64,000 nucleotides of DNA from Herpetosiphon aurantiacus DSM 785 (GCA_000018565.1 CP000875.1:569199-633198); one strand, 5' to 3'; shown: positions 26,695-59,375, counted from the stretch's first letter. Numbers and translations: made by a program. The notes: generated from the letters alone by a model not told the origin.

Positions 26695-26770
26695 GACTCC
26701 GTAGCTCAGTGGATAGAGCGTTTCCCTGCGGAGGAAAAGGTCGGGCGTTCGACTCGCCCCGGAGTCGCCA
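26695..26770 (+). tRNA. tRNA-Arg (anticodon loop CTGCGGA, anticodon read as GCG), copy 1
   Basis: Cloverleaf: acceptor GACTCCG/CGGAGTC, D-arm GCTC-AGTGGATA-GAGC, anticodon stem TTTCC/GGAAA, T-arm GGGCG-TTCGACT-CGCCC, CCA encoded. Coordinates ±1. Confidence 0.7.
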
Positions 26771-26795
26771 CTTCTTTACAATCAAAACCCCACTA

Positions 26796-26887
26796 GGGAA
26801 GGTGGCAGAGTCCGGTTGAATGTACCGCCCTCGAAATGCGGCAAGGTGTAAAAACCTTCGTGGGTTCGAATCCCACCCTTCCCGCCA
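26796..26887 (+). tRNA. tRNA-Ser (anticodon CGA), class II with long variable arm
   Basis: Acceptor GGGAAGG/CCTTCCC, discriminator G, anticodon loop CTCGAAA, variable stem AAGG/CCTT, T-arm GTGGG-TTCGAAT-CCCAC, CCA encoded; one C·U mismatch at the anticodon-stem closing pair. Confidence 0.65.
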
Positions 26888-26947
26888 CCAACATGGCAGC
26901 ACTCGAAAGTGCTTTTTTTATTTAATGCAGGCTGTATTTCAAAATGC

Positions 26948-27023
26948 GACTCCGTAGCTCAGTGGATAGAGCGTTTCCCTGCGGAGGAAAAGGTCGGGCG
27001 TTCGACTCGCCCCGGAGTCGCCA
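26948..27023 (+). tRNA. tRNA-Arg (anticodon GCG as read), copy 2
   Basis: Identical in sequence to copy 1 over the tRNA body; followed by hairpin+T-run terminator (caccctagggtg ttttttt). Confidence 0.7.
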
Positions 27024-38127: not shown

Positions 38128-39315
38128 ATGAGCAACGAGCGCGAACCGGTGTTGTTGAGTGCTGCCCGCACGCCAATTGGCAAGTTTGGCGGGAGCCTCG
38201 CTGATTTAACTGCGCCTCAACTCGGTGCGATCGCAATTAAGGCCGCATTGGAGCGAGCTGGAATCAACGGCGATGTGGTTGATGAAGTGATTATGGGTAA
38301 TGTCGTTGGGGCGGGCTTGGGTCAAGCACCTGCGCGACAAGCAGCTTTGGGTGCTGGTGTGCCCGATAGCGTGAGCGCCCTAACAATTAATAAGGTTTGT
38401 GGTTCGGGCTTAAAGGCCGTGATGTTGGCCGCCAGCATGATCAAAGCTGGTGATGCTGAGCTGATTGTGGCTGGTGGCATGGAAAACATGTCGCGAGCGC
38501 CCTACCTTTTGCCTCAAGCCCGCTTTGGCTATCGGCTTGGCAACGGTGAAATTCAAGATGCCGTAGTGCATGATGGCTTGTGGTGTGCGGTTGAGCATCA
38601 TCATATGGGCAACTCAGCTGAGTGGGTCGCCGATGCTTGCAATGTTAGTCGCGAAATGCAAGATGAATTTGCCTACAATTCACATCGCAAAGCAGCAGCA
38701 GCGATTGCTCGTGGCGCGTTCAAAAACGAAATTGTGCCTGTTGAACTCAAGAGCCGCAAAGGCACAACCATTTTTGATACCGACGAGCCAGTTCGTGCCG
38801 ATAGCACGGTTGAAGCCTTGGCCAAATTAAAGCCAGCCTTCAAAGCTGATGGCTCTGTTACTGCTGGCAATGCACCTGGCATTACCGATGGCGCTTCGGC
38901 TTTGGTGGTCGCAAGCATGGCCAAAGCCCAACAACTGGGAGCCAAGCCGCTGGCCCGCATTACTGGCTATGCCCAGGCTGGCGTGAAACCACTCGAAATC
39001 TTTACAGCTCCAGCCTTTGCTGTGCGCCGCTTGCTTGAAGTAACCAACACCAGCTTGGCCGATTACGATTTGTATGAATTCAATGAAGCCTTTGCCGCCC
39101 AAGCGCTTGCCAACGGCCACGACCTCAAGATCGATTGGGATCGCTTGAATGTCAATGGTGGAGCGGTCGCTTTGGGTCACCCGATTGGGGCTAGCGGCGC
39201 ACGCGTATTGACGACGCTGGTGTATGCCTTGCAAGAACGTGGTGGCAAGCGTGGCCTCGCGACCCTCTGTTTAGGTGGTGGCGAAGCCGTTGCCTTGGCA
39301 ATTGAATTGATTTAA
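38128..39315 (+). CDS. Acetyl-CoA C-acetyltransferase (thiolase II)
   Basis: [11 protein letters not shown] active-site Cys, [16 protein letters not shown]-terminal [19 protein letters not shown] and CLGGGEAVA. Confidence 0.95.
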
Positions 39316-39368
39316 GCCAGAGCGGAGAAGGTGATGACGGCACCAAACAACCAACATAAGGAGGAACA

Positions 39369-39569
39369 ATGGGTACTGTTGAGTTGATCTCTACTTTGGA
39401 TGAAGGCGTTCGTGAAGGTCGAATTGCGCCCTACTTGGCCGATTTTATTGCAGCGCAAGCCCTGAATGTTTCAGCCGACGAAGTTGGCTTTAGCGAATGG
39501 GGCAGCCCCGACCACGACGTACTATCCTGCGATGGAGCAACCACCGAAGCCCTTTCCCGTCATCAATAA
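39369..39569 (+). CDS. Hypothetical small protein
   Basis: 66 aa ORF followed by strong GC hairpin (39575-39615). Confidence 0.25.
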   Translation: MGTVELISTLDEGVREGRIAPYLADFIAAQALNVSADEVGFSEWGSPDHDVLSCDGATTEALSRHQ

Positions 39570-39668
39570 AAAAGAGCGTGCGGCGCGACCAAATTGGTCG
39601 CGCCGCACGCTGCGATTGAGCCTAAAAAGTTTGTGAACCTTATCATTTGCAATTTTATTACGAGTGTG

Positions 39669-41183
39669 CTATACTCTCACGCGTTGGGCCGGTAGCTCAG
39701 TGGTAGAGCATCGGACTTTTAATCCGCTGGTCGTGGGTTCGATCCCCACCCGGCTCACCAAGCGGGATTGTTGCAAACTTCCTACGAGTTCCAGAAATGG
39801 TTCTCGTGGTTGGTAGGCGACAATCCCTTTTTTTGTGCCCCAAACGGCTGCAATGAGTGATTGTAAGGCTACGCGCTTCTCGGCTAATGCCCTCTTCTGC
39901 TTAAATGTCCAACTAATTGATTCTAATAAATCTAAGGCTTGCTCCATGTTAAAGGATGCAGCTGGTTTTTGGCGTGGTGCTTGGGCTTGAGCCAACAACG
40001 CTGATTTGCGCTGCTCATATTCATCAGCCCGGATGTGATCATTGAGAAACAGGCGCTTGAGTGCGGCAAGCTCGGCTTCAATGTTGGGGGCTTCGGGGGC
40101 TGGTTGTTGGTGTGCGTCCCACTGTTGCTGAGCAACCCGAAGAATATCGCGCTTCCAATCGCTGGGAAACGCCAAGGCATCAAGCACGGCAATCATATGC
40201 TGATCAAGCACATCGTTGCGCACCATGGCCATGGGGCATTGGTTGTAGCGGTGTTGGCTGCACTCATAGTACACAACGTTGGTTGTGCGCTTGTAGTGTT
40301 GCCACATGCGGCTGCCACATTGCTCACAATACAAAATTTCACTGAGCAGCCCACGGCCTTGGCTCACAGGAGTCCAGCCGCGCTTTTGGCCGCGCCGATC
40401 AAGCAAAACTTGTACCGCGTCCCATGTTTGTTGATCAATCAGCGCTTCATGTTGGCCAGCATAGGTTTGGCCTTTGTAGCTCACCTTGCCAATATAGGCT
40501 TGGTTGCGTAGCATCGATGCAACGTTGTCTTTGGTGTAGGGAACATAGCGCCCTTGTTGAGTGTTCCAAACTCGCGCACCACGTTGGTTCATGGCATCGG
40601 CGACGGTGCTGAAGCTATACAGTCCTGTGGCATAGAGTGTAAACAGCATGCGTTGATGCTCGGCATCGGCTGAAGGAACCAGCACCCCGTGCTCATTGCG
40701 TTGGTAGCCCGTTGGCACGGGGCCAGGTAATTTGCCTGATTCCGCAGCTGCACGGCGGGCACGTGCAACCCGTTCGCCTGTTAGTCGGCTATAGAGTTCG
40801 GCCCCAGCTCCTAACATCGTCAGATTGAAGCGGCCAGCAGCGGTATCCATCTCAATTGGCTCGGTAATTGAAATGAGTTGAATCCCCAGCGCGTGGAATT
40901 CATCAACCACCCGCAGCTGGAGCGAAGTGTTACGGGCGCAGCGGTCGAGCTTCCAAACTAACACAACATCAAAGCATCGTGGTTTCCGAGCGGCATCTTC
41001 ACGAAGCTGCATAAACGCGGGACGATCAGCATTGCGGCCACTCTTGCCAGCATCTTGATAGACCTGCACAACGTGCCAACCATGGCGTTGGGCATAGGCC
41101 TGACAATCACGCTCTTGGCTTGCAAGGCTGCTGTTTTCAGCTTGTTCACGGGTGGAAACCCGTGTATAGATAACGGCTCGCAT
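39669..41183 (-). CDS. Large serine recombinase (resolvase/invertase-domain site-specific integrase)
   Basis: N-terminal RAVIYTRVSTREQ catalytic Ser motif, recombinase domain, and zinc ribbon (CEQCGSRMW…YYECSQHRYNQCP). The C-terminal ~25 codons are the antisense of tRNA-Lys. Confidence 0.85.
   Translation of the reverse strand: MRAVIYTRVSTREQAENSSLASQERDCQAYAQRHGWHVVQVYQDAGKSGRNADRPAFMQLREDAARKPRCFDVVLVWKLDRCARNTSLQLRVVDEFHALGIQLISITEPIEMDTAAGRFNLTMLGAGAELYSRLTGERVARARRAAAESGKLPGPVPTGYQRNEHGVLVPSADAEHQRMLFTLYATGLYSFSTVADAMNQRGARVWNTQQGRYVPYTKDNVASMLRNQAYIGKVSYKGQTYAGQHEALIDQQTWDAVQVLLDRRGQKRGWTPVSQGRGLLSEILYCEQCGSRMWQHYKRTTNVVYYECSQHRYNQCPMAMVRNDVLDQHMIAVLDALAFPSDWKRDILRVAQQQWDAHQQPAPEAPNIEAELAALKRLFLNDHIRADEYEQRKSALLAQAQAPRQKPAASFNMEQALDLLESISWTFKQKRALAEKRVALQSLIAAVWGTKKGIVAYQPREPFLELVGSLQQSRLVSRVGIEPTTSGLKVRCSTTELPAQRVRV
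39686..39760 (+). tRNA. tRNA-Lys (anticodon TTT)
   Basis: Acceptor GGGCCGG/CCGGCTC (one G·U), D-arm GCTC-AGTGGTA-GAGC, anticodon loop CTTTTAA, T-arm GTGGG-TTCGATC-CCCAC, CCA encoded. Confidence 0.9.
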
Positions 41184-41328
41184 GAATAATCCCTTCTACG
41201 CTGCTTTCGATTGAGGCGGTTGTGCAGATGATTGATCCGCTTCTTGGTCTTTGTCAAGCATCAATGCAACCAACAAGGCTGCAAAGGCTTGAACAACGCT
41301 TTCACGTTGCCCATCGGCGTGGCCCCGT

Positions 41329-41568
41329 TCAATTGGTGTTGGTAGTGCTTGCATTGCGACCTTCCCATAATGGAATCAGAATCGTTCGTGCGCGGACGGT
41401 ATGATCAGAGAAATCAATATAGCCACGCCGTTTCAGTTCGAGTAAGGAGCGGCGACAAGGGCCGTATGGGATACCAACAGCCGTAGCCAATTCTTGAATC
41501 GATGCTTGCGGTTGCTGACTTACAGCGGCCCAGACTTTACGGACAAGATCAGTATTCATTCGGCTCAT
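41329..41568 (-). CDS. Small winged-HTH DNA-binding protein
   Basis: 79 aa; IQELATAVGIPYGPCRRSLLELKRRGYI HTH-like. Confidence 0.4.
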   Translation of the reverse strand: MSRMNTDLVRKVWAAVSQQPQASIQELATAVGIPYGPCRRSLLELKRRGYIDFSDHTVRARTILIPLWEGRNASTTNTN

Positions 41569-42275
41569 GCGGCTTTACCTCGTCGCTTGGCTAGATTCAA
41601 TCGTCGATAATCGGCAATGCCCGTGAAATCCAAGTGTTCAACCAGCGCAACATCAGCCAAACGGCTCGCGATACGCCCATCAAAGCGCTTCAAATCTTCG
41701 TTGGTGGTAAACACCGTTGGTAGCTCGCGGTTGTAGCGGTGATTGATCAGCTGAAAGTGTTTTTCTTTGGCCCAGCTAGTAAGGTGCTCAGTACCAGCAT
41801 CATCAAGCACCAGTAAGGGAACATTGCGAATGCGGTCAAAGCGCTGTTGAAACGATTCGCCTTGTTGGCCATCAAAGGTTTCGCGTAAGGCATCGAACAA
41901 ATCAGGCACTACGAAAAACATGGCGCTCTTGCCGCTGGCAACGACAGCATGAGCAATCGCAGCGGCTAGGTGGCTCTTGCCACAACCATATGGCCCCGAA
42001 AGTAATAACCAGCCTTTGGGGTCACTTGCATAATCCATGCAGGCCTGAGCCAGCGGTGCTACCTGTGGCAAGCTCACAAAGGTTTCAAATGTTTTTTTGG
42101 CGACAAGGCTTAAGTCGCCATGCTTCTGTAGTATGGTTGGTTTGCGACAGTCGCAAGGAATATACTCAATCGCCTTGCGGGTTTTATCATCGCTATAGCG
42201 ATAGCCGAGCACGCCACTATCTTGACAGCGCTCACAGGTGATCGTTTCTTCACGTTCCCAAACAGCATTGGTCAT
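41565..42275 (-). CDS. DnaC/IstB-like AAA+ ATPase (replicative helicase loader-like)
   Basis: Walker A LSGPYGCGKSHLAAAIA, Walker B LLVLDDAGTE, N-terminal zinc-binding CxxC…CDC. Confidence 0.75.
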   Translation of the reverse strand: MTNAVWEREETITCERCQDSGVLGYRYSDDKTRKAIEYIPCDCRKPTILQKHGDLSLVAKKTFETFVSLPQVAPLAQACMDYASDPKGWLLLSGPYGCGKSHLAAAIAHAVVASGKSAMFFVVPDLFDALRETFDGQQGESFQQRFDRIRNVPLLVLDDAGTEHLTSWAKEKHFQLINHRYNRELPTVFTTNEDLKRFDGRIASRLADVALVEHLDFTGIADYRRLNLAKRRGKAA

Positions 42276-43168
42276 TGTGTCCCCCCAGCAGCTTCAACCA
42301 GCCTGTTGGCCAATGGCCCCCAGCGCTTGTAGATCATTTCAGTCCAATCATCGTATTGGGCTTGAATTCGGCCATTCACCAGTTGGGCATATTGCAAGGC
42401 ATCACGTTGATTTGAGGTCAGGCCTTGCCATTGATCGAGTCCAATCCATGCAGGCCGCCGATCATCGTTGGCTGGTTCGGTGTGCGGTGGTGATGGTTCT
42501 GGCTCAGGAGTGAGGCGATGGTGAACGCCTGCTTTGAGGTCAAGGGCGATTTGGGCGGCGGGGTAGTTTGGCCCAACATGGTCAAGATAGGCTTGAATTA
42601 TTTCAAGCGGCTCATGGGCATGTTTTTTTGCCGTCCAAACTTGCCGATCCCGAAGTAGTCGATAGGTTTCAGTATCCGTTGGTTTTTTTGGCTGCGCAGC
42701 AGGAGTATTATTATTATTTCTTATTAATTGATTCTTGTTAATTAAACCATGCGACACTGGTGTCGCCTCTGACACGACACTGGTGTCGCCTCTGACGCGA
42801 TCCTGATGTCGTGTCTGACACGACACTGGTGTCGTCTCTTCGACACTGGTGTCGCGTTGCTGAGATTCAAACAGTTCGTAAATATTGCCATGGCGGGTTT
42901 GAATTGAGGCTAACCAGCCATAAGTTTCAAGTTCTTTAAGCCAGCGCTGGATTGTCCGAATATGGGGTACTTTGTCATCTTCAGCACATGCTTGGGCTAG
43001 GTCTTTTTGTTGGGGCCATGCAGCTTCCTCGTTTCCTGCATAGGATGCAAGAATACCCCACAGTAATCGCGCACTACGTGATAATCGCGAATCACGCAAG
43101 ATGGTATGGGGGATTGCAGTCCACCCATTGCGCCATCGCACCTGAATACGATCAGATTGTGGTGCCAT
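42272..43168 (-). CDS. Replication initiator-like protein (N-terminal winged HTH, DnaD/replisome-organizer-like) containing internal iterons
   Basis: wHTH segment IPHTILRDSRLSRSARLLWGILASYAGNEEAAWPQQKDLAQACAED…TIQRWLKELETYGWL; tandem palindromic iterons inside the ORF (42750-42857). Start chosen at an internal Met because the upstream extension overlaps the next ORF. Confidence 0.5.
   Translation of the reverse strand: MAPQSDRIQVRWRNGWTAIPHTILRDSRLSRSARLLWGILASYAGNEEAAWPQQKDLAQACAEDDKVPHIRTIQRWLKELETYGWLASIQTRHGNIYELFESQQRDTSVEETTPVSCQTRHQDRVRGDTSVVSEATPVSHGLINKNQLIRNNNNTPAAQPKKPTDTETYRLLRDRQVWTAKKHAHEPLEIIQAYLDHVGPNYPAAQIALDLKAGVHHRLTPEPEPSPPHTEPANDDRRPAWIGLDQWQGLTSNQRDALQYAQLVNGRIQAQYDDWTEMIYKRWGPLANRLVEAAGGTQ
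42750..42857. repeat. Tandem palindromic iterons (GACACTGGTGTCG core), candidate replication origin
   Basis: Four to five copies of gacactggtgtcg(c/t)ctct within about 110 bp, each itself an inverted repeat GACAC-TG-GTGTC; located inside the initiator ORF, as in lambda O / ori-in-rep arrangements. Confidence 0.6.
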
Positions 43169-43175
43169 ACAACGC

Positions 43176-43439
43176 CTACTTTCCATCATCAGAAGAATCG
43201 GTTGCACGTTTCGCCACAAGTTGACGAATAGTGTGCAACACACCCTGTTGCTTACGCCGGCTCTGCTCGGCATGCCTGAGTTCATCGAGCGATTCACGGC
43301 TCATGCTGTTAGCTCGCAGAGCTATATGCTTATGGGCATCACCAATTTCATTGTTGAGGGCGGTTGCATCTTCGACCAGGCCAATCAGTTCATCTTGCTT
43401 AGTTTTGCCCATCGTTATCCAACCCAACAATTTGGCCAC
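43176..43439 (-). CDS. Hypothetical small protein
   Basis: 87 aa ORF. Confidence 0.3.
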   Translation of the reverse strand: MAKLLGWITMGKTKQDELIGLVEDATALNNEIGDAHKHIALRANSMSRESLDELRHAEQSRRKQQGVLHTIRQLVAKRATDSSDDGK

Positions 43440-43740
43440 GGATAAAACCCGCAGCCTCGGCCTCAGTTTCGATTCGTTGTAAGCGTGACCGAATCCACCA
43501 AGCTACTAAATCAGCCGAGCCAGCCAGGCCAGCAATCGCCCAAAAACCGATAATCGTTGCTGGTTGGTTGAGTAATAGCGCCCAGATGGTGAGCACAATG
43601 CCAATACAGGCGGTGCCTACCGTATAGGCCTGCGGTCGTGATAAGCGCCAATGGCGATGCCAAAGCAATCCATGAATGGCAACCATCAACACGGCACAGG
43701 CAAGACCTGCTATGATGGCTGTCAAAATTGTGTAAAGCAT
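43399..43740 (-). CDS. Hypothetical membrane protein (3 TM)
   Basis: 113 aa hydrophobic ORF. Confidence 0.35.
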   Translation of the reverse strand: MLYTILTAIIAGLACAVLMVAIHGLLWHRHWRLSRPQAYTVGTACIGIVLTIWALLLNQPATIIGFWAIAGLAGSADLVAWWIRSRLQRIETEAEAAGFIRGQIVGLDNDGQN

Positions 43741-43803
43741 CTTGCCCTCGAATCCTTAAACAGGGATTGAAACAGAAATACGTTGTCACAAATCCGACGA
43801 TGA

Positions 43804-44019
43804 CTAGTAGGATGGTGTAGTGGATTCTGCGGTTTGATTCCGTTCAGCATCGTCGGCCAAGGCACGGAGTAGCTGGGGATGATTTAGTAGCCATAAGATG
43901 CCCTTTGGTAAATCACCGTTTGCATAACGCCACCTAGTGGCTTGGGATAAATTTTGTAACGGTATTTCTTTTAAGCATTCTCGGAATTTTTCGAGGTGTG
44001 GTTTAGGTGGAATTGTCAT
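43804..44019 (-). CDS. Hypothetical small protein
   Basis: 71 aa; divergent from XRE gene across an AT-rich promoter region. Confidence 0.3.
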   Translation of the reverse strand: MTIPPKPHLEKFRECLKEIPLQNLSQATRWRYANGDLPKGILWLLNHPQLLRALADDAERNQTAESTTPSY

Positions 44020-44142
44020 CCTAACCCCATTTCATATACGATATTCATATATGAAATATTATAGAAATAACTTGAGTTTGTCAAATTTGAAATTCAAATA
44101 TGATTATTTCATTTTTGAATTAGGCACGATATACTAGGGACT

Positions 44143-44565
44143 ATGAGTATGATTGCAACAGGCGCATATCTTTGGACACTACGAGAAGCCATTGGCTTAT
44201 CGCGTGATGACGTTGCCCATGAGGCTGGAACTAACAATGTTCAAATAATGAGGATAGAAAAAGGAGAGATTGATACAAGAGGATCATTGTTATTATCAGT
44301 TGTTAGAGCAGTTAAGGGGAATGCCGAGCATATTGCCCAGTTATTACTTGATGCTAGTGCTACTGAAGAAGATGGACGCAATCTAGCCATTTCTTGGATT
44401 AATCGAGAAACAACATCTGCAATAGATGAATTTATTGCAGATGTAAAAAAGGATAATAAAGTTTCTGAGGCGCTGAAACTTATTCAGCAGCTGGAGGCGC
44501 TTGATCCTTCTTCCCTTGATCGGTTGTTAGGTTATGGACAAAGTTTGCTTGATCGGAATCGCTAA
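44143..44565 (+). CDS. XRE/Cro-CI family HTH regulator
   Basis: LWTLREAIGLSRDDVAHEAGTNNVQIMRIEKGE HTH; AT-rich, TATACT -10 element upstream. Confidence 0.65.
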   Translation: MSMIATGAYLWTLREAIGLSRDDVAHEAGTNNVQIMRIEKGEIDTRGSLLLSVVRAVKGNAEHIAQLLLDASATEEDGRNLAISWINRETTSAIDEFIADVKKDNKVSEALKLIQQLEALDPSSLDRLLGYGQSLLDRNR

Positions 44566-45014
44566 GACGTTCGCGTAGATACGCTAAGATTTGCTTTACC
44601 AAAGAATCTTTTTCTTCAACTAGCAGGATTAATAAAAGGAGACAGGCTGTTCCAGTAAAAAAAACTCGTTGATCTAACATTTCAAAAAGGGTGGATGACA
44701 TAAATATTATGAGGCACGCCCAAGTTCCATTGTTTATCTTTTTCATCTCTTATCCCTATACATAGGCAAACGTATGAGGGAGTATACCATTTTTTATCGT
44801 CCCCGAACATGAAAATTTGATGACAACGAATCTAGGTAGTGCCTTTGTGGCGCTAGAAACAATACCTAGCATAGTAATGCAGTTAATGAAATCCATACAT
44901 TTATGGGAGTACCATGAAGGAGGTAGTTAAAATCCCCCTCGATGAGAAGTACATTCTGTGATATGCTCTGTACTCGATAGTACCATTCACTCTTGATGCT
45001 TTGTGGAGGTTAGC

Positions 45015-46079
45015 ATGGTTGGCGCAGTCATTGATCTATTCTGTGGAGTTGGTGGGCTAACCCACGGGCTTATTCTTGAAGGTTTTGGCGTACTGGCAGG
45101 GATTGATAACGATCCTTCTTGTAAGTATGCCTATGAGCAAAATAATAGAACTCGTTTTATTGAAAAGTCTATTACTGAAGTTGATGGCAGAGAGTTAAAT
45201 GCCCTCTATCCCAATAATCAACATAAAATCTTAGTAGGCTGTGCCCCATGCCAAGATTTTTCTCAATATACGAAGAAGAGTCGTACTGGAACAAAGTGGC
45301 AATTACTCACAGAATTTTCGCGCCTTATTAGAGAGATCGAGCCTGATATTATATCAATGGAAAATGTTCCTGAGGTTCGAACATTCAATAGAGGGGAAGT
45401 TTTTAACAATTTTATTCAAGCACTTGAACAATTAGGGTATCACGTTTCGCATAGCGTGGTGCATTGTCCTGATTATGGAATTCCGCAGCAACGTGACCGA
45501 CTAGTCTTATTTGCTGCTAAACAGGGCGTTATTAAGATTATACCCCCAACCCACACTCCTGAGAACTATCGAACTGTACGTGAAGTTATTGGTTCTCTGC
45601 CACCAATTACTGCTGGCGGACACTGGGAGGGTGATAGCATGCATGCAGCCAGCAGACTAGAAGATATAAACCTTCGACGTATTCAGCATTCTGTGCCTGG
45701 TGGTACTTGGGCCGATTGGCCGGAAGAATTGATTGCAGAATGTCATAAAAAGGAAAGCGGTGAGAGTTATGGGAGCGTCTATGGTCGAATGGAATGGGAT
45801 AAAGTAGCACCTACCATCACTACACAATGCAATGGGTATGGTAATGGTCGCTTTGGTCATCCAGAGCAGGATCGCGCTATTTCGCTCCGTGAGGCTGCCT
45901 TACTTCAGACATTTCCGCGAAGTTATCAATTTGCCCCTGAAGGCCAACTGAAATTTAAGACAGTTAGTCGTCAAATAGGGAATGCTGTTCCGGTCGCACT
46001 AGGTCGTGTTATTGCAAAAAGTATTAAGCGTTTTTTGGAGGGTTTACATGAGCGACAGCGGGTACGAATTATCATTTAG
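45015..46079 (+). CDS. DNA cytosine-5 methyltransferase
   Basis: Motif I DLFCGVGG, motif IV GCAPCQDFS, motif VI ENV, motif VIII QQRDRLVLF, motif X GNAVPV; GGAGG RBS before ATG 45015. Confidence 0.9.
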   Translation: MVGAVIDLFCGVGGLTHGLILEGFGVLAGIDNDPSCKYAYEQNNRTRFIEKSITEVDGRELNALYPNNQHKILVGCAPCQDFSQYTKKSRTGTKWQLLTEFSRLIREIEPDIISMENVPEVRTFNRGEVFNNFIQALEQLGYHVSHSVVHCPDYGIPQQRDRLVLFAAKQGVIKIIPPTHTPENYRTVREVIGSLPPITAGGHWEGDSMHAASRLEDINLRRIQHSVPGGTWADWPEELIAECHKKESGESYGSVYGRMEWDKVAPTITTQCNGYGNGRFGHPEQDRAISLREAALLQTFPRSYQFAPEGQLKFKTVSRQIGNAVPVALGRVIAKSIKRFLEGLHERQRVRIII

Positions 46080-47877
46080 TCTTAATACATTGAATCACTT
46101 AAGCGAAGGTCTTTATAGTAATATTCCTGCGGTTTTATCTGAATTAGTTGCTAATGCTTGGGATGCCGATGCAACTGAGGTATCTATTAATATACGACAA
46201 GATGAAATAGTCATTCAAGATAATGGTATAGGAATGTCAATTGAGGATGCTAATACTAAGTTCTTACGAATTGGGCATCAAAAGAGAGAAGATTCAGCCA
46301 ACACTATAAGTGGACGGCATGTTATGGGCAGGAAAGGGATCGGTATACTGGCAATATTTGGTATAGCCAATATTGCTGAGGTTTATTCTTGTAAGGATGG
46401 AGTACCCCATGGATTTATAATTCGTAAAGGCGATATAGAAAGAGGGATAAGTAGCGATGTAACGTTGTATAGGCCATCACCGGTTCCTCAAGATGATTTA
46501 TCTATTGAATCAGGAACAAAGATTATATTACGAGAAATAAAATCTTCTATTGTAAATGCGGAGAAAACTCTAAGAACTGATCTTGCCCGGAGATTTACAA
46601 TTATTAATAATAATTGTAATTTTTCTGTAATTATTAATAATATACCAATTAGTGATAATGATCGTGATTATTTAAATAAAGTACAATTTCTTTGGTATCT
46701 TGGTGAAGAAAGTAGTAAATATGCTGATTTTTTTACTAAGCTAAAGAAATCATTTGAAATTACGAATCTAGTAGATGGAATGTCAGGTATAACTGTTAAG
46801 GGTTGGATTGGTACTGTATATCGTCCAAGTAATATTCCAACGAGCCACCGTACCATCTCTATTTTTGCTCATGGTAAAATGATTCAAGAAGATATTTTAA
46901 TAGATATAACTGATGCGGGTGTATATCGACAATATATCATTGGTGAAATTGAAGCAGATTTTATGGATAGCGATGATGAAGATGACATTATTACCAGTAA
47001 TAGACAAAGAATAAAGCAAACTGATCCTAGATATCTCAAGCTACTACAGTATGTCAAGGCAGATATTATGCGAGTTATTGCATCAATGTGGACTAACTTG
47101 CGAAAGGAATACCCATCTAAGCCAAAAAAAGAGGAAGTTAATGATAGTTCATCATCAAAAGATGCCAATTCTTCTGAACAAGAGAATACAAATGCTAGTA
47201 GTGATTCATCAAACACTACCGATGCTAGTAGTGATTCATCAAACACTACCGATGCTAGTAGTGAGACGAATGATGGTGATGTGGAAGATAATTCTTTTTT
47301 TGATGATGATATTCCTGAACCTAGCCCTCCACCTAAACAAGAAATTACTACTGCATTTAGAGAGATGAAGAATCTTGTTAAGAATAGTAATATTCCCGAT
47401 CAAATGAAAAATATTATTTTATATGATATTCAACAAGCAGCCTATGCTTATAAAGGAACATCATTTAAAGCTTGTATTGTAATGTTGGGAGCTATTCTAG
47501 AAGGTGTTATGCTTGGAACAATCCAGAGGACGGATGTACTAGAATACTTGATTACTTTACAGACAGTACCAAAGCCATTAAGTGATTTAGGCCCTAGAAA
47601 TCCTAAATTTGCTGATCGTACAGTGCTAGCCCAGTATATAGGGACTACCTTTTCATTTCAGGACTGTAAGGAAATAATAGAGCTATGTGTACAAGGTACT
47701 AATAAACTAGGTGTCGATATACTTCAAACGGTTAGAAATTCTATACATCCAGGTTCAGTATTAAAAGATATGAAACAACTAGCAAGGTTCAATCATCAAA
47801 GCGCTGTTGGTTACATTGCCAAACTACATGAAATTATTAATTTAGTGATTCTATGGAATCCTCCATCTATTCCATAG
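46048..47877 (+). CDS. GHKL (MORC/MutL-like, HATPase_c_3-type) ATPase with low-complexity repeat linker and unassigned C-terminal domain
   Basis: Bergerat-fold motifs: N-box SELVANAWDADA, G1 box IQDNGIGM, G2 box GRKGIGILAIFG. Ser/Asp/Thr-rich tandem repeat (SSDSSNTTDA x2). About 230 aa C-terminal domain without recognisable nuclease motifs. Start overlaps the MTase stop by 32 nt (translational coupling). Confidence 0.75.
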   Translation: MSDSGYELSFSLNTLNHLSEGLYSNIPAVLSELVANAWDADATEVSINIRQDEIVIQDNGIGMSIEDANTKFLRIGHQKREDSANTISGRHVMGRKGIGILAIFGIANIAEVYSCKDGVPHGFIIRKGDIERGISSDVTLYRPSPVPQDDLSIESGTKIILREIKSSIVNAEKTLRTDLARRFTIINNNCNFSVIINNIPISDNDRDYLNKVQFLWYLGEESSKYADFFTKLKKSFEITNLVDGMSGITVKGWIGTVYRPSNIPTSHRTISIFAHGKMIQEDILIDITDAGVYRQYIIGEIEADFMDSDDEDDIITSNRQRIKQTDPRYLKLLQYVKADIMRVIASMWTNLRKEYPSKPKKEEVNDSSSSKDANSSEQENTNASSDSSNTTDASSDSSNTTDASSETNDGDVEDNSFFDDDIPEPSPPPKQEITTAFREMKNLVKNSNIPDQMKNIILYDIQQAAYAYKGTSFKACIVMLGAILEGVMLGTIQRTDVLEYLITLQTVPKPLSDLGPRNPKFADRTVLAQYIGTTFSFQDCKEIIELCVQGTNKLGVDILQTVRNSIHPGSVLKDMKQLARFNHQSAVGYIAKLHEIINLVILWNPPSIP

Positions 47878-47892
47878 GGATAGTTAAGGGGT

Positions 47893-47940
47893 AAAAAAGC
47901 ACCGTGGGCTGCTTGGCTCCACGGTGCTTTTTTATTTTTA
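47893..47940 (+). terminator. Rho-independent terminator after MTase-GHKL operon
   Basis: agcaccgtgg…ccacggtgct hairpin then TTTTTTATTTTT. Confidence 0.65.
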
Positions 47941-48238
47941 CCTCTTGAATACCCCTTGATGACCACAATAACTTGCAGCATTAAGTTCTGCTTCATTTAG
48001 CTGTAGGGAGAATATCGACTACGCTGTTTGATCATAGCCGTGGGCGTGCTCGAGCTGTTTGGCTAATGTTTGGGCTGGTGTTGGCTATCCTACTGTATTC
48101 TCCTCAAATACCGTCGTATTGTGCCTATCCATTCATAAGAAATCAGCCAAAAATCTTAATTCACTCCATCATGATCCAAAAAATGGGTCTGAATTGCACC
48201 TAACTTAGTTGAAGGAAACGCTTTGTTTAGGAGACGCT

Positions 48239-49321
48239 ATGTCATACCCACAACCCTCTATGCCACCTTATATGCAACCAGTACCACCAAACAAGCCAGG
48301 CTGGCGGAAAAATATCAAATGGATTGCAATTGGCAGTGTCGTGTTTGTGTGTTCATGTTTGGGACTCGCCTATAACCAAGGCTCAAAGCTACAGGCCGAG
48401 CAGACGGCTACGGCTATTGTAGTTGCTAATGTTACCGCAACCGCCCAGCAAAGCAATACGAATGCAACCAGTGAGGCGGTTGCGATTGCGGCGACCGTCG
48501 AGCAGGATAATGCCAATGCTACGAAGGAAGCTATTGCAATTGCGGCGACCCAGACTGAAGAGGCTCGGCCAACCAATACTCCAGTGCCAACCAATACACC
48601 GCTTCCGCCAACGGCAACGCCATTCGTAGCAGAGATTGGCCAAAGTAATCCGATTGGCCAATGGGAAATTACCATCCTCGATATCAGCATTGCGAATGAT
48701 TTTAGCGAAGCGGCAACTGGTAAGTGGCTGGTTGTCCATGGGACGATAACCAACAAGGGCGATGACCACCTGATTGGTAAGCAAGAATTGAAGGTACGAA
48801 CAGATACCAAAACAATTGAATTAGACCGGAATGCTTCCAACCAAGCGGCAAAACGCCTCAATGTTACCTCGATCGGCGATTTAGGCGGGAAGATGATTAA
48901 GCGTGGTGAACGCGAAGAATGGGCAATTGCTTTCGATATTCCCCAAGACAGCAATGAGTTATGGTTTACGCTTGAAGGGACTGATGCCGTGAAGTTTGGG
49001 GCGATTGGTGAGACGGCAGAATTACCAACGGTAACACCACGTCCAACTGCTACGGCGGTTCCTGATCTTGCCACCGAGGCGGGTGCTATTGATGTCTGTA
49101 AGCAGGCAGTCAAGCAACGCCTTACCCATCCCTCAACCGCTGATTTCCCATGGTTCGATTATCAAACCGTGCAGGAAGGCGATCTAACTTGGTATGTCCA
49201 ATCGACAGTCAAAGCGAAGAACTCGTTTAATCTGGAAGTGGAATTTGTATGGGTTTGTAAAGTAACTTATGAAGGCAATAGCCGATGGAATATTGATGAT
49301 GTACAAATGGCTGAACAATAG
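48239..49321 (+). CDS. Secreted/membrane-anchored DUF4352-like domain protein with Pro/Thr-rich linker
   Basis: N-terminal Pro-rich region then TM; central segment GKWLVVHGTITNKGDDHLIGKQELKVRTDT…FDIPQD resembles DUF4352 (phage/lipoprotein-associated). Confidence 0.5.
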   Translation: MSYPQPSMPPYMQPVPPNKPGWRKNIKWIAIGSVVFVCSCLGLAYNQGSKLQAEQTATAIVVANVTATAQQSNTNATSEAVAIAATVEQDNANATKEAIAIAATQTEEARPTNTPVPTNTPLPPTATPFVAEIGQSNPIGQWEITILDISIANDFSEAATGKWLVVHGTITNKGDDHLIGKQELKVRTDTKTIELDRNASNQAAKRLNVTSIGDLGGKMIKRGEREEWAIAFDIPQDSNELWFTLEGTDAVKFGAIGETAELPTVTPRPTATAVPDLATEAGAIDVCKQAVKQRLTHPSTADFPWFDYQTVQEGDLTWYVQSTVKAKNSFNLEVEFVWVCKVTYEGNSRWNIDDVQMAEQ

Positions 49322-49340
49322 ACCATCCTAGATTAATCCC

Positions 49341-49378
49341 TTGCACCATGGAGCCAGTCGGCCCATGGTGCTTTTTTA
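49341..49378 (+). terminator. Rho-independent terminator (sequence-related to the one at 47893)
   Basis: gcaccatgg…ccatggtgc hairpin then TTTTTTAT. Confidence 0.6.
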
Positions 49379-49417
49379 TGGTCTAAATCCTATTGTTGCC
49401 TTGGATACTACTCCAGC

Positions 49418-49440
49418 AAATTCCGAAAATTTCGGAATTT
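49418..49440. promoter_or_regulatory. 23-bp palindrome AAATTCCGAAAATTTCGGAATTT (candidate operator), copy 1
   Basis: Perfect inverted repeat in the AT-rich promoter region upstream of the long + strand operon; a near-identical copy at 56951-56972. Confidence 0.5.
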
Positions 49441-49512
49441 GTGTTTCATATCTGTAATTCATTATTGACATCATTTCAAATATGATTTATATTTCAGATA
49501 TGAATTTCAGGA

Positions 49513-50388
49513 GTGAAATATATGCAACCTCAAGAAACCACACGTCGAGAATTGACCACCCTAAGCCATGCCGCTGTTGGAATTACATTGTGGCTTGAGC
49601 ACAACAACCATGGCTGGAGCGCATTTCTCTCAACCCCCAAAATGACCATTCAACACATTGGCAGTCGATATTACGAATTTTTTGTTGATGAGCTAATCCA
49701 ACACGCGATTAACTACGCCGACGAAGTAGCCGAAGAGTTTAACCCAACCCCAGCTGCACCAGCTGCCCCACTCAAGCCTGCTAAGAAAAAACCAACCCGC
49801 AAACAACCAAAGCAGCCTGTGTGCTATTGCCAATGCTGTAGCCCAACCCAAGGCGCAACAGGTGTTACCTATTGCCTGAAGGACAAAGAGTACGTTGCCC
49901 ACAATGGTGGCGAGTTGATCGGCTACTTCCCAACCAGCGATGCTGCTAGTAGCAAATTGAACAAGCTGCGTTATGAAATTTTATCGCGGGAGTTTCCAGA
50001 GCAGCCAGCGCACAAGTTTTTTGAGCCACTTGAAGATGAACTAACACGCGAGCCTGCTGCATCTTCAGCATCGGCTATTCCCCAAGCCCCAAGCTATTTC
50101 GTGATTGGTCAATTGGTTGGCCAACTACGCCAACTCTATGCTGGAAAAAAAGTTCAGCTTAATGCCATCAACAAAGCCTTTAGCGAATTGGCCGTGCCTG
50201 GCTGGTCGTGGGATGGCTCAAGCCTCACCATTCGTAGCCGCTCTAATCCTTCCATTTTGTATCACGTCAATGGCGATACCTGCCAATGTACTGCCTTTGC
50301 CAAAGGTGCGACGTGTTGGCATCGAGCAGCCTACAAGATCCTCTTGCAAGCAGCAGCGGCCCCAAATCATTATCAGAAAGCCGCCTAG
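49513..50388 (+). CDS. SWIM zinc-finger domain protein
   Basis: C-terminal CQCTAFAKGATCWHRAAY fits SWIM CxCx(n)CxH; Pro/Ala/Lys-rich linker. Confidence 0.5.
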   Translation: MKYMQPQETTRRELTTLSHAAVGITLWLEHNNHGWSAFLSTPKMTIQHIGSRYYEFFVDELIQHAINYADEVAEEFNPTPAAPAAPLKPAKKKPTRKQPKQPVCYCQCCSPTQGATGVTYCLKDKEYVAHNGGELIGYFPTSDAASSKLNKLRYEILSREFPEQPAHKFFEPLEDELTREPAASSASAIPQAPSYFVIGQLVGQLRQLYAGKKVQLNAINKAFSELAVPGWSWDGSSLTIRSRSNPSILYHVNGDTCQCTAFAKGATCWHRAAYKILLQAAAAPNHYQKAA

Positions 50389-50491
50389 GCCTGAGCAGTC
50401 CTACCTGCTCACCATCGCGACTGCATCACTGTGTGCAGTGCCGCATGCGTAAGCGGCAACCAAGCACCAACCACTTAAAACAGGAGGATGA

Positions 50492-56700: not shown

Positions 56701-57617
56701 CCACACAACTAACCTTATTCGATTACAACGCGCTGGATACTGAAACCCGCGTTATCGTTCAGCAAAAAGCGGTCGAAATTCGGGATCGAATGCGCAGCGC
56801 TGCGCAGGCCGTCATCGAGATTGGTGAGCGGCTGATCGATGTGAAAGAACGCTTGGGCCATGGCAAGTTTGGGCAATGGCTTGATGCAGAATTCCAATGG
56901 TCAGCTGATACCGCCCGTAACTATATGAATGTTGCTGAGCGGTTTGGTCAAAATCCGAAAATTTCGGAATTTGCACCATCGGCCTTATATTTGTTGGCAG
57001 CCCCATCAACACCAGAGGATGCCAGAACTGAAGCGATCAATCTAGCCGAGCAGGGCCAAAAGATTACCCATGCAGTAGCAAAGCAAATTGTAACCACCCA
57101 CAAAGAGCAAGCAGCGCCAAAGCCCAAGCCAGCAGCTGCACCAGCAGTGCCAAAACCTGAACCTAAGCTTGAGATCCCCCCAATGCTCATCATTGGCGAT
57201 AAGACGGTTCCTAGTGCTGAATTCACAGGCACGCCAACACCAAACACAATTGATGATAGTGAGAGCGAAGAGCTAGCCAGCCAGCCACTGGTTGAAACGC
57301 CATCTGAACAACCAGACTTACCACCAATGCTTACCATTGGCCAACCAAGCCCAGCGGCTGCCGTTGAAATCGATACGAAGCCCTTGGCTTATGCAATCGT
57401 GGTGCAGGAGTTGGCGCGGCAAATGGTTACACTTGCCAACCAGCGCGTGAAGTTATTAGAAGATCAAATTGAGGCCCAAGGGAAAGAGGTTATTCAACCA
57501 TTCATTGATACAGAGCAGATGGCTGAAGCAGCTGCATCATTTATTGGAACGCCTGCATTCAAGTCACAAGCTGGCTTGTTGGCCTTTGGGGTGAAGGTTA
57601 ACCTTCGGGATTTCTAA
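56697..57617 (+). CDS. Hypothetical protein with N-terminal DUF3102-like helical domain and Pro/Ala-rich linker with internal PPML(I/T)IG repeats
   Basis: N-terminal YNALDTETRVIVQQKAVEIRDRMRSAAQAVIEIGERLIDVKERL; contains the second copy of the 23-bp palindrome in its coding sequence. Confidence 0.4.
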   Translation: MTTQLTLFDYNALDTETRVIVQQKAVEIRDRMRSAAQAVIEIGERLIDVKERLGHGKFGQWLDAEFQWSADTARNYMNVAERFGQNPKISEFAPSALYLLAAPSTPEDARTEAINLAEQGQKITHAVAKQIVTTHKEQAAPKPKPAAAPAVPKPEPKLEIPPMLIIGDKTVPSAEFTGTPTPNTIDDSESEELASQPLVETPSEQPDLPPMLTIGQPSPAAAVEIDTKPLAYAIVVQELARQMVTLANQRVKLLEDQIEAQGKEVIQPFIDTEQMAEAAASFIGTPAFKSQAGLLAFGVKVNLRDF

Positions 57618-57620
57618 ACA

Positions 57621-57656
57621 AGCCTGCCTGCTGTCTGAAACAGCAGGCAGGCTTGA
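57621..57656 (+). terminator. Strong hairpin at end of long + operon
   Basis: caagcctgcctgctgt-ctgaa-acagcaggcaggcttg perfect 16-bp stem; weak T-tract. Confidence 0.45.
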
Positions 57657-57700
57657 CATTTGTGCTAGGATTTAAAAGATTTACATATTTGGGTATTTCT

Positions 57701-58891
57701 ATGATGCAACCACTTACAAATATCAGTAAAGCTGTAGATAGGATTATTGAATCACTTCCACAATTACAGCCTGTTTTGGAATCAACGACTTATAGACTTG
57801 GTGATGACTCTATTATCATTCGAAATAAGTATCCAGAATATCGAAACCAATTAAAATTACATAAAGATTTACTATCTAATATAATATTGGAAGAGTTAGA
57901 TAATAAGGAATTTAATTTTATTATAGATGAATCTGATATTAATTTTATTGAATTCGATAGAATTTCTTCAAAAAGATCAGTATCTAAAAATATAAATCAT
58001 AATTTTAATATAGAAAATAATATAAATTTAAATTTCTATACTTCTCAATCAATAGATGTAATAGATTCTGGTATATCACAATATTTAGATGATTTTAAAA
58101 AAAGAATGGTGTGGCCTCACTACAAAATAATAAGAAAAAAAGAAAATTCATCAAAAATAGTTTACGAAATATCATTCATTTCGATTGGTGAATTGGGGTT
58201 TATCACAGATATGACGGGAAAGATCTATTTAAGGAAAATAGGCGGAGGTGGATTTAACATCAAATATATAAATCCATTCCATATAAAAGATAATATAGAT
58301 AAGTTAGTTGAATTTCACCTCGAGGAATTTGATAAAATAAAGAAATGGCATAACTTTGAAATAGATATTCTTGAATCATCTATAGATTCTTCAAGAAATA
58401 TTATAGTTATTTCTAGAGAGATATTTGAATATATTGAATATAGCTTAAAAGAAGATGAAATAATTGAAGATAATGATTTATATAGAATTAATAGAAATAA
58501 TGAATATTACGTAAACCTTGATAGAATAAAAGAACTATCAAAAATTCAATCAAAAGATTTTGATATTACTAAACTAGTGAAATTATGTTTAGAATTAAAT
58601 ATATCATTTTCAAATGAGTGTTATTTTGCAGCTATATTTATTCTTAGGGCTATTATAGATCATATACCACCAATATTTGGACATATTAATTTTGATAATG
58701 TAGTAAGTAACTATAAAGGTAATTCTGGCAAAAAAATATTAAATCATCTTTTGGTTACGTTAAAAAATACTGCTCATATAAATATCCATAAACCTATTTC
58801 TAGGAAAGAAATTATTCCAAATCGACAACAAGTTGATTTTAAAAGTGAGATAGACTTTCTATTATCAGAGATAATACAAGAACTGTCATAG
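57701..58891 (+). CDS. Hypothetical protein encoded by an extremely AT-rich orphan gene (about 397 aa)
   Basis: Asn/Ile/Lys-rich composition; GC far below flanking DNA; no recognisable catalytic motif. Confidence 0.45.
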   Translation: MMQPLTNISKAVDRIIESLPQLQPVLESTTYRLGDDSIIIRNKYPEYRNQLKLHKDLLSNIILEELDNKEFNFIIDESDINFIEFDRISSKRSVSKNINHNFNIENNINLNFYTSQSIDVIDSGISQYLDDFKKRMVWPHYKIIRKKENSSKIVYEISFISIGELGFITDMTGKIYLRKIGGGGFNIKYINPFHIKDNIDKLVEFHLEEFDKIKKWHNFEIDILESSIDSSRNIIVISREIFEYIEYSLKEDEIIEDNDLYRINRNNEYYVNLDRIKELSKIQSKDFDITKLVKLCLELNISFSNECYFAAIFILRAIIDHIPPIFGHINFDNVVSNYKGNSGKKILNHLLVTLKNTAHINIHKPISRKEIIPNRQQVDFKSEIDFLLSEIIQELS

Positions 58892-59375
58892 TGAGAAGGC
58901 AGTCATACATCAAGTATGACCGCCTTCTCATATTTAAACCGCTAGTTGAGCCGGCAATACATCCAACTAGGGCAAGGGCAATTCCACCACCACCTCAACC
59001 GTATCTGTGACTGGCAGATACTTCATTTCGCCGACGGTAAAGCTCCGCAACTCTGGCGATGCCAGGAGCAGTGGCAGATTGCTAATCGTGATCGTATCGT
59101 TGTGCTGAATTAAATCCAGAATGTATTGTGGTTACCTGCTCCAGCTAGAGGTGTAATGTACCCAAACTGGTAATTATGATTGTTTTGGACACAATTGCAG
59201 ACCATCTTAATTACCATTCATATCGTGTTCATATCGTATTCAAACCGCATTCAGATGGTATACAAACCGCCAAAAAAAGAATAGCCCATCAGAAAGGCCT
59301 AAACTGGCCGTTTGGTCGTGCCGACATTCTTTAACAGGCTGCATCGCCACCGTTTTCATCCTGAGGAGGTTGTTC

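Follow-up and report, generated by a model that had tools for sequence, protein, structure and literature searches.

The HgiDII gene pair of Herpetosiphon aurantiacus DSM 785: a catalogued restriction-modification cassette whose MORC-type ATPase carries a predicted HEPN-like domain

We analysed a window of 64,000 nucleotides from Herpetosiphon aurantiacus DSM 785 (GCA_000018565.1 CP000875.1:569199-633198), in which an earlier note had proposed an uncharacterised defence module, outside the standard restriction-modification (R-M) types, in an AT-rich islet at 44020-47940. As judged by sequence comparison, the locus is the catalogued HgiDII (GTCGAC) R-M gene pair, and it is therefore already known and no new defence module. 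The second protein of the pair, referred to below as the GHKL protein, was 92% identical to the UniProt entry 'Putative type II restriction enzyme HgiDII' (100% coverage, 1100 bits), and its methyltransferase partner was 98% identical to M.HgiDII (MTD2_HERAU, P0125). Comparison of homologous loci showed that the cassette was a two-gene methyltransferase-guarded module, in which the second protein joined a MORC-type ATPase to an exchangeable C-terminal domain of a predicted nuclease type. As a genome feature it was nothing unusual, being a Type II R-M cassette known from the catalogues and carried in a prophage defence hotspot, and its residual value was mechanistic and curatorial.

A search for exact sequence matches placed the window in DSM 785 (NCBI accessions ABX03175 and ABX03177). 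PADLOC assigned the GHKL protein to REase_II (PDLC03485, 1324 bits, 1-609 of 611) and the methyltransferase to MTase_II. The NCBIfam model NF050001, 'BbrUII/HgiDII family restriction enzyme', gave 401.8 bits, which was below its cut-off of 550, and the alignment was confined to residues 6-363 against model positions 1-372 of 659. The HgiDII system of Herpetosiphon giganteus Hpa2 (REBASE Type IIP, GTCGAC) was the same system with the same overlapping gene order, although it came from another strain, and the DSM 785 copy was visible as the cargo of an integrated element. Moreover, R.HgiDII had already been described as an N-terminal GHKL module followed by a C-terminal domain 'unassigned to any known fold' (Orlowski & Bujnicki 2008, PMC2441816). 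The two identity values, the REase_II score and the 2008 paper thus contradicted the claim of an uncharacterised module. The earlier note had itself named a match of the C-terminal domain to a known Type II restriction endonuclease as evidence against its proposal, and nominally such a match existed. Its statement that the cassette had no recognisable restriction nuclease held only for the C-terminal domain, which was no recognisable DNase, but the GHKL protein as a whole was a catalogued restriction endonuclease.

The 1991 entry of R.HgiDII differed from the DSM 785 protein mostly in two short blocks (LRFYLK and NEQPYHIY). Since both blocks reappeared in other frames of the DSM 785 DNA, they were due to errors in the 1991 entry, namely frameshifts that compensate each other. 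One of them removed the catalytic N-box Glu, so this residue (E32) was lost from the deposited sequence but kept in the DSM 785 copy.

The Pfam family PF00145 (267 bits) covered the full length of the methyltransferase. The mechanical open reading frame (ORF) was 45003-46079 (+) and opened at GTG 45003. The true start was likely to be ATG 45015, because it gave 354 aa as in M.HgiDII, and the annotations of sister genomes also had 354 aa. The 1991 report, as cited in PMC5867850 (Düsterhöft & Kröger 1991), characterised M.HgiDII by experiment as a 5-methylcytosine (m5C) methyltransferase of GTCGAC. The ORFs and the 32-nt overlap between the methyltransferase (M) and R genes were found where the earlier note had placed them, and the overlap was suggestive of translational coupling. 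A survey of gene neighbourhoods, which had been proposed as a check, found the pairing of the methyltransferase and the GHKL protein to be conserved in every neighbourhood examined. Namely, a PF00145 methyltransferase adjoined the R gene in every locus examined; in most homologous loci the M gene was upstream on the same strand, abutting or overlapping the R gene, and in locus L009 it was on the opposite strand.

The N-terminal part of the GHKL protein was a complete Bergerat ATP-binding fold, as had been suggested, with the motifs E32-xxx-N36-A-x-D39-A, D58-N-G-I-G-M and G94-RK-G97-I-G99 read directly from the sequence. E32, N36, D39, D58-G60-G62 and G94-G97-G99 were invariant among 20-23 homologues, and the Pfam family HATPase_c_3 matched with 62 bits (cut-off 25). 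The GHKL domain was directly followed by an S5-fold transducer, which is the arrangement defining MORC and paraMORC proteins. The proposed MORC/MutL-like ATPase was also confirmed, with MORC proteins outscoring MutL as matches and with no C-terminal dimerisation/endonuclease domain of MutL in the protein. A nuclease hidden within residues 130-360 was considered and ruled out, since this entire region aligned to MORC GHKL+S5, which accounted for all of the N-terminal 362 residues. The predicted Ser/Asp/Thr repeat linker was present as well, including a 30-nt tandem duplication. Among homologues the linker was unalignable and variable in length, and it formed a disordered tether of 60-150 aa (about 60 aa in DSM 785).

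The earlier note had described an unassigned C-terminal domain of about 230 aa and had proposed it as the effector. The domain was there, but its conserved part was shorter, about 187 aa (residues 423-609), and was located behind the linker. Its AlphaFold2 (AF2) model, built on 19 homologues (pLDDT 87, pTM 0.84), was all-helical: two long helices were followed by H3 and a long H4, with a helical insert separating H2 from H3. R563, N564, H567 and P568 were invariant in 23 homologues, the RNxIHP motif was kept in distant relatives, and R563-H567 was at the end of H3 (model helix 134-143), which is the place defined for HEPN domains. By the published definition (PMC3710099), helix 3 ends in Rx4-6H, in which the R is followed by a polar residue, and helix 2 holds a conserved acidic residue, typically as Ex3[KR]. 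In helix 2 of the model, E485 was invariant without K/R at +4, and an invariant K474 was 11 residues upstream. DUF4145, a family of the HEPN clan, gave a weak sub-threshold signal in eight of the 19 family members (best E = 0.012). Sequence searches of Pfam, NCBIfam and the PDB with the C-terminal domain returned nothing usable, and a PD-(D/E)XK core with D...(D/E)xK was not found in this all-helical domain. Since the topology fits the published definition, with the invariant R/N/H residues at the end of H3 although in Rx3H spacing, the C-terminal domain probably has a HEPN fold. This assignment would answer the question raised in 2008 about the identity of the unassigned domain of R.HgiDII.

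In P0247 (532 aa) the RNxIHP domain was joined to an nSTAND2 NTPase, and in P0272 (472 aa) it was joined to a tyrosine-integrase-like domain. These fusions to other modules suggested that the HEPN-like domain behaves as a portable effector, which supported its proposed role as the likely effector of the cassette. The HEPN-type family itself was small, with 66 representatives at E <= 1e-30 in a library of 1.84 billion representative proteins clustered at 50% identity. As a separate observation, many proteins of 250-470 aa carried the RNxIHP domain behind N-terminal domains without assignment. Two short HEPN-domain proteins, P0245 and P0264, came from contigs of insufficient length for an assessment of methyltransferase linkage.

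The BbrUII type formed a larger sister branch: its N-terminal module was 45-53% identical to that of the GHKL protein, but it had a different C-terminus. The latter contained an invariant D...E-L-K, typically as GRxDI[RK]Y...IIIELKK, and it was matched by PDDEXK_4 in six of nine proteins (best E = 4.8e-5), by Shedu SduA_C in five of nine and by NucS_C in four of nine. Homology of the HEPN-like domain with this C-terminus was rejected (hhalign probability 0.2%), and most members of NF050001 have the PD-(D/E)XK domain where HgiDII has the HEPN-like one. The comparison showed an effector swap, described here for the first time, in which one MORC-type module carries either a PD-(D/E)XK/Shedu-type domain or a predicted HEPN domain. 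The DNase-type domain of the BbrUII branch was attached through a structured helical connector, whereas the unrelated HEPN-fold domain of HgiDII was on a disordered tether. In the BbrUII-type loci examined, the adjoining m5C methyltransferase had the same target recognition domain (TRD) as in the HgiDII cassette. The variable/TRD region of the partner methyltransferases was strongly conserved with M.HgiDII in the HEPN and BbrUII-type branches alike, suggesting that these methyltransferases were of the same or similar specificity. With one MORC-type module and one methyltransferase type kept constant, the swap can serve as an experiment set up by nature on the gating of effector nucleases by GHKL clamps. 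BbrII has reportedly been described as a neoschizomer of SalI. Proteins that combine GHKL and PD-(D/E)xK domains have been classified as paraMORC3 (Iyer et al. 2008). One of them, VcSduA, is a validated defence protein that requires both the ATPase Glu and the nuclease Lys (PMC12137116); it acts without a methyltransferase, whereas the HgiDII protein is paired with one. It has also been reported that M.BbrUII alone contributes little to transformation (2023 IMPRINT preprint).

We tentatively favour a reading, to which we would give nearly an even chance, in which the MORC-HEPN protein of the HgiDII cassette cuts RNA in a methylation-gated growth-arrest or abortive response similar to that of PrrC/RloC. 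M.HgiDII would methylate GTCGAC and shield the host from the partner protein. At the first step, the N-terminal module would recognise or clamp unmethylated GTCGAC DNA; since both effector variants are paired with methyltransferases of the same TRD, site recognition would most likely reside in this shared module. GHKL ATPases dimerise on ATP, and at the second step the module would use such dimerisation as a switch. HEPN nucleases form their active site only on dimerisation, and at the third step two HEPN domains would meet, build such a composite site between them and set off the nuclease. It is a serious possibility, although not one we would count on, that R.HgiDII is no DNA endonuclease but a MORC-clamp-gated HEPN RNase, licensed by unmethylated GTCGAC and blocked by M.HgiDII.

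RNA was judged to be a somewhat likelier substrate than a specific DNA site. Three features led to this judgement, namely a fold predicted to be of the HEPN type, an R/N/H triad in the canonical place and a tether of 60-150 aa that is floppy. The label of R.HgiDII in UniProt ('putative') was also counted for RNA. Several observations weighed on the other side. No Pfam HEPN model reached its threshold on the C-terminal domain, which had no Pfam match at all in the window protein, and a Foldseek search against the PDB was not significant (best E = 0.39; 1wol, probability 0.87). The motif spacing was Rx3H, one residue short of Rx4-6H, with N following the R, and the invariant D460, K474 and E485 were a candidate metal site for DNA hydrolysis. 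In addition, HgiDII is catalogued as a DNA endonuclease, and its R protein is the sole partner of the methyltransferase in the 3-kb cargo, so by parsimony it should cut DNA. Finally, the statistics of the target site were ambiguous. GTCGAC did not occur in the 64-kb window, against 6.5-7.9 expected (Poisson P ~4e-4 to 1.4e-3), which is consistent with restriction of GTCGAC. However, this depletion was non-specific since many GC-rich palindromes were likewise missing from the window: GGCGCC (18-27 expected), GCGCGC (14-33), CGGCCG (13-16), CCGCGG (7-16) and GGATCC (5-12) were absent too, and CTGCAG was observed once against 11-20 expected. This strong avoidance of GC-rich palindromes fits a genus with many Hgi-type R-M systems. 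In the loci of homologues, GTCGAC was observed 0-2 times against about 2 expected, and these counts were too small to interpret.

The main competitor of RNA cleavage was the classical reading found in REBASE, UniProt and PADLOC, in which the protein is a true R.HgiDII, a DNA endonuclease on a HEPN-like scaffold that cuts unmethylated GTCGAC. We regard it as plausible but doubtful. It accounts well for the 92% identity to the catalogued R.HgiDII, for the R gene that adjoins and overlaps that of its cognate methyltransferase, for a cargo with no further gene and for the absence of GTCGAC from the window. Also in its favour are the spacing of R and H, which is non-canonical, the additional invariant D, K and E, and the fact that the BbrUII branch has a genuine DNase domain in this very position. 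On the other hand, characterised active HEPN domains are all metal-independent RNases that use the 2'-OH as a nucleophile (PMC3710099), and DNA has no 2'-OH. A disordered tether of such length also seems ill-suited to precise cutting inside a 6-bp site. The UniProt assignment is only 'putative', and the cloning paper of 1991 names, in its title as given by PMC5867850, the methyltransferase gene only. Thus the largest share of our confidence, which is still short of half, goes to RNA, a smaller but substantial share to DNA, and a small remainder to all other readings.

If the RNA reading is true, HgiDII would be an abortive or growth-arrest system in the shape of an R-M system, with the methylation status of DNA controlling the cleavage of RNA. 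The converse would be equally novel, since R.HgiDII would then be the first HEPN-fold enzyme with site-specific DNA hydrolysis. Either 'Type II restriction endonuclease' is a misnomer for the entire HEPN branch (the 66 representatives) or a HEPN scaffold has been recruited to DNA hydrolysis. R.HgiDII seeds the hidden Markov models that annotation pipelines use for their calls of 'Type II REase' (restriction endonuclease). Taken together, the HEPN assignment and the effector swap make the label 'Type II restriction endonuclease' experimentally questionable for the HEPN branch.

Several related systems have been described. For fusions of paraMORC with HEPN(Ymh) that occur near R-M genes, a role analogous to that of PrrC/RloC has been predicted (Anantharaman et al. 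2013, PMC3710099). These proteins (e.g., R.NmeAIP) share with HgiDII the GHKL+S5 ATPase, a C-terminal HEPN domain and R-M neighbours. However, the HEPN family differs, since the HgiDII domain had no Hypoth_Ymh match, a weak DUF4145-like signal and the Rx3H spacing, and it was noted previously that the C-terminal extension of NmeAIP is different from that of HgiDII (Orlowski & Bujnicki 2008, PMC2441816). The anticodon nucleases PrrC and RloC, which are linked to Type I R-M systems, are functional analogues because they also fuse an NTPase to a HEPN RNase within an R-M system. Their ATPases are of the ABC type, not GHKL as in HgiDII, and there was no sequence relationship; moreover, they guard against anti-restriction, whereas the HgiDII protein is paired one-to-one with its methyltransferase. 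In eukaryotes, sacsin combines Hsp90-like GHKL repeats with a C-terminal HEPN domain, but it is a giant chaperone without R-M context, and the HEPN domain of human sacsin has no catalytic motif (PMC3710099).

The low-GC islet was borne out by the GC profile, with GC 0.34-0.44 over 44-48 kb against about 0.50 around it. In locus L014 of a sister Herpetosiphon genome (GCA_003205875.1), the flanks were 89-91% identical to 38157-44886 and 47895-50460 (blastn) but enclosed a different cargo; the identity was 91% up to 44886 and resumed at 47895. The equivalent slot (L014:6782-9346) had a three-gene AT-rich cargo (GC 0.35) in place of the R-M pair. Its first gene encoded a Ser/Thr kinase, for which the match was to the defence kinases PD-T4-6 / mad6 (E ~1e-36), and the other two proteins (404 aa and 155 aa) had no family match. 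Different cargo between shared flanks delimited the R-M cargo to 44887-47894, assigned the helix-turn-helix (HTH) gene to the backbone of the element and marked the slot as a defence hotspot. The islet as first drawn was therefore too wide, since it took in the HTH gene. This XRE-like gene had also been proposed as the controller of the cassette, or C-protein, and comparative evidence rejected this role: in L014 the gene was retained with the backbone, at 91% identity, beside the kinase cargo, and it was absent from all seven non-Herpetosiphon M-R loci. In a scan for promoters and terminators over 43.7-48.3 kb, the number of sites did not exceed that in shuffled controls, and nothing about an operon or a controller was deduced from it.

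Three other readings shared the small remainder of our confidence. It is unlikely that the pair is decayed or decoupled, with an inactive R gene and a methyltransferase acting as an orphan or epigenetic methylase on a prophage. In favour of this, UniProt credits the cloned R gene with a 'putative' activity only, but all invariant GHKL and HEPN residues were intact, the ORF was of full length, identical or 92%-identical copies of the R gene persisted in several Herpetosiphon genomes, and the tight M-R coupling was conserved across phyla. It is still less likely that a MutL/MORC-like protein aids very-short-patch or mismatch repair of the T:G lesions that arise from m5C deamination. The higher scores of MORC and the missing MutL domain speak against it, as do the alternation of the terminal domain between PD-(D/E)XK/Shedu-type and HEPN, both of which are effectors of conflict systems, and a sporadic cargo-like distribution in a prophage hotspot shared in alternation with a PD-T4-6-like kinase; furthermore, as the earlier note had observed, the cassette in the window had no Vsr gene. 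The original proposal was a new defence system, guarded by modification, controlled by the XRE gene and unlike any R-M type. Its novelty and the XRE control were refuted by the identity with catalogued HgiDII and by the cargo swap in L014, and the proposal is hardly credible: for a Type II restriction endonuclease the domain organisation is indeed uncommon and the effector domain has no Pfam assignment, but the system was already named and its architecture discussed in 2008, R-M systems with paraMORC-nuclease and paraMORC-HEPN proteins are a described kind, and the XRE gene stays with the backbone.

Table 1. Coordinates of the features of the HgiDII cassette and of the element carrying it, counted from the first letter of the window.
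Feature	Position	Strand	Basis or remark
Large serine integrase, mechanical ORF	39669-41183	-	runs into tRNA-Lys gene
Element backbone: serine integrase, DnaC-like loader, replication initiator	39669-43297	-	PHROG matches
tRNA-Lys(ttt)	39686-39760	+	ARAGORN
Four tandem 23-nt iteron-like repeats (family D1), core ACGACACTGGTGTCGCCTCTG	42728-42839		inside replication-initiator gene
HTH (XRE-like) gene, 140 aa	44143-44565	+	HTH_31 + HTH_3 below Pfam gathering thresholds
AT-rich R-M cargo (M + R only), 3 kb	44887-47894	.	homology breakpoints
m5C DNA methyltransferase, M.HgiDII orthologue	45015-46079	+	354 aa from ATG 45015
Overlap of R start and M 3' end, 32 nt	46048-46079	+	ORF coordinates
'R.HgiDII' orthologue (ABX03177 / WP_012188085), 609 aa: MORC-type ATPase + linker + HEPN-like domain	46048-47877	+	ORF, homology
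GHKL (Bergerat) + S5 transducer ATPase module	46048-47133	+	residues 1-362
R.HgiDII discrepancy blocks	46123-46143 and 46834-46860		residues 26-32 and 263-271; comparison with UniProt/1991 sequence
Low-complexity Ser/Asp/Thr/Pro linker	47134-47313	+	residues 363-422
30-nt tandem duplication (direct repeat D3), encodes ASSDSSNTTD twice	47187-47246	+	repeat search
C-terminal domain, predicted HEPN fold	47314-47874	+	residues 423-609
R563-N564-S-I-H567-P568, putative HEPN catalytic motif (Rx3H)	47734-47751	+	invariance, model position

The location of the cassette in a mobile element was confirmed, and this element was prophage-like and integrated at tRNA-Lys. Its backbone genes matched PHROG 95 (integrase, 4e-96), PHROG 50 (loader, 9e-47) and PHROG 270 (initiator, 3e-12). 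The integrase ORF reached into the tRNA-Lys gene, suggesting that the element had been integrated at or in the tRNA gene; an attachment-site repeat at its other end was not found within the window. Iterons within an initiator gene, such as those listed in Table 1, are typical of a phage or plasmid origin. The same element was present in other Herpetosiphon genomes. An antisense ORF of 88 aa (44480-44746, -) lay over the 3' end of the HTH gene and was annotated in all sister genomes; it had no family match and could be either a false call or a small gene of the backbone. In the late region of the element, a 25-nt perfect palindrome, CAAATTCCGAAAATTTCGGAATTTG, occurred at 49417-49441 and 56949-56973, with the two copies 7.5 kb apart and 96% identical.

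Vsr genes flanked three of the homologous M-R cassettes (L005:7107-7526, L009:1621-2040 and L010:2430-2855), which included both the HEPN and the PD-(D/E)XK branches. The L009 cassette was also adjoined by GmrSD_N and HEPN_MAE_28990 genes, forming a defence island. Elsewhere in the window, a second AT-rich patch (58001-59000, GC 0.265) was located over the 3' part of the ORF 57653-58891, and a tRNA cluster at 26695-27023 comprised Arg(gcg), Ser(cga) and Arg(gcg), with the tRNA-Arg duplicated about 250 nt apart.

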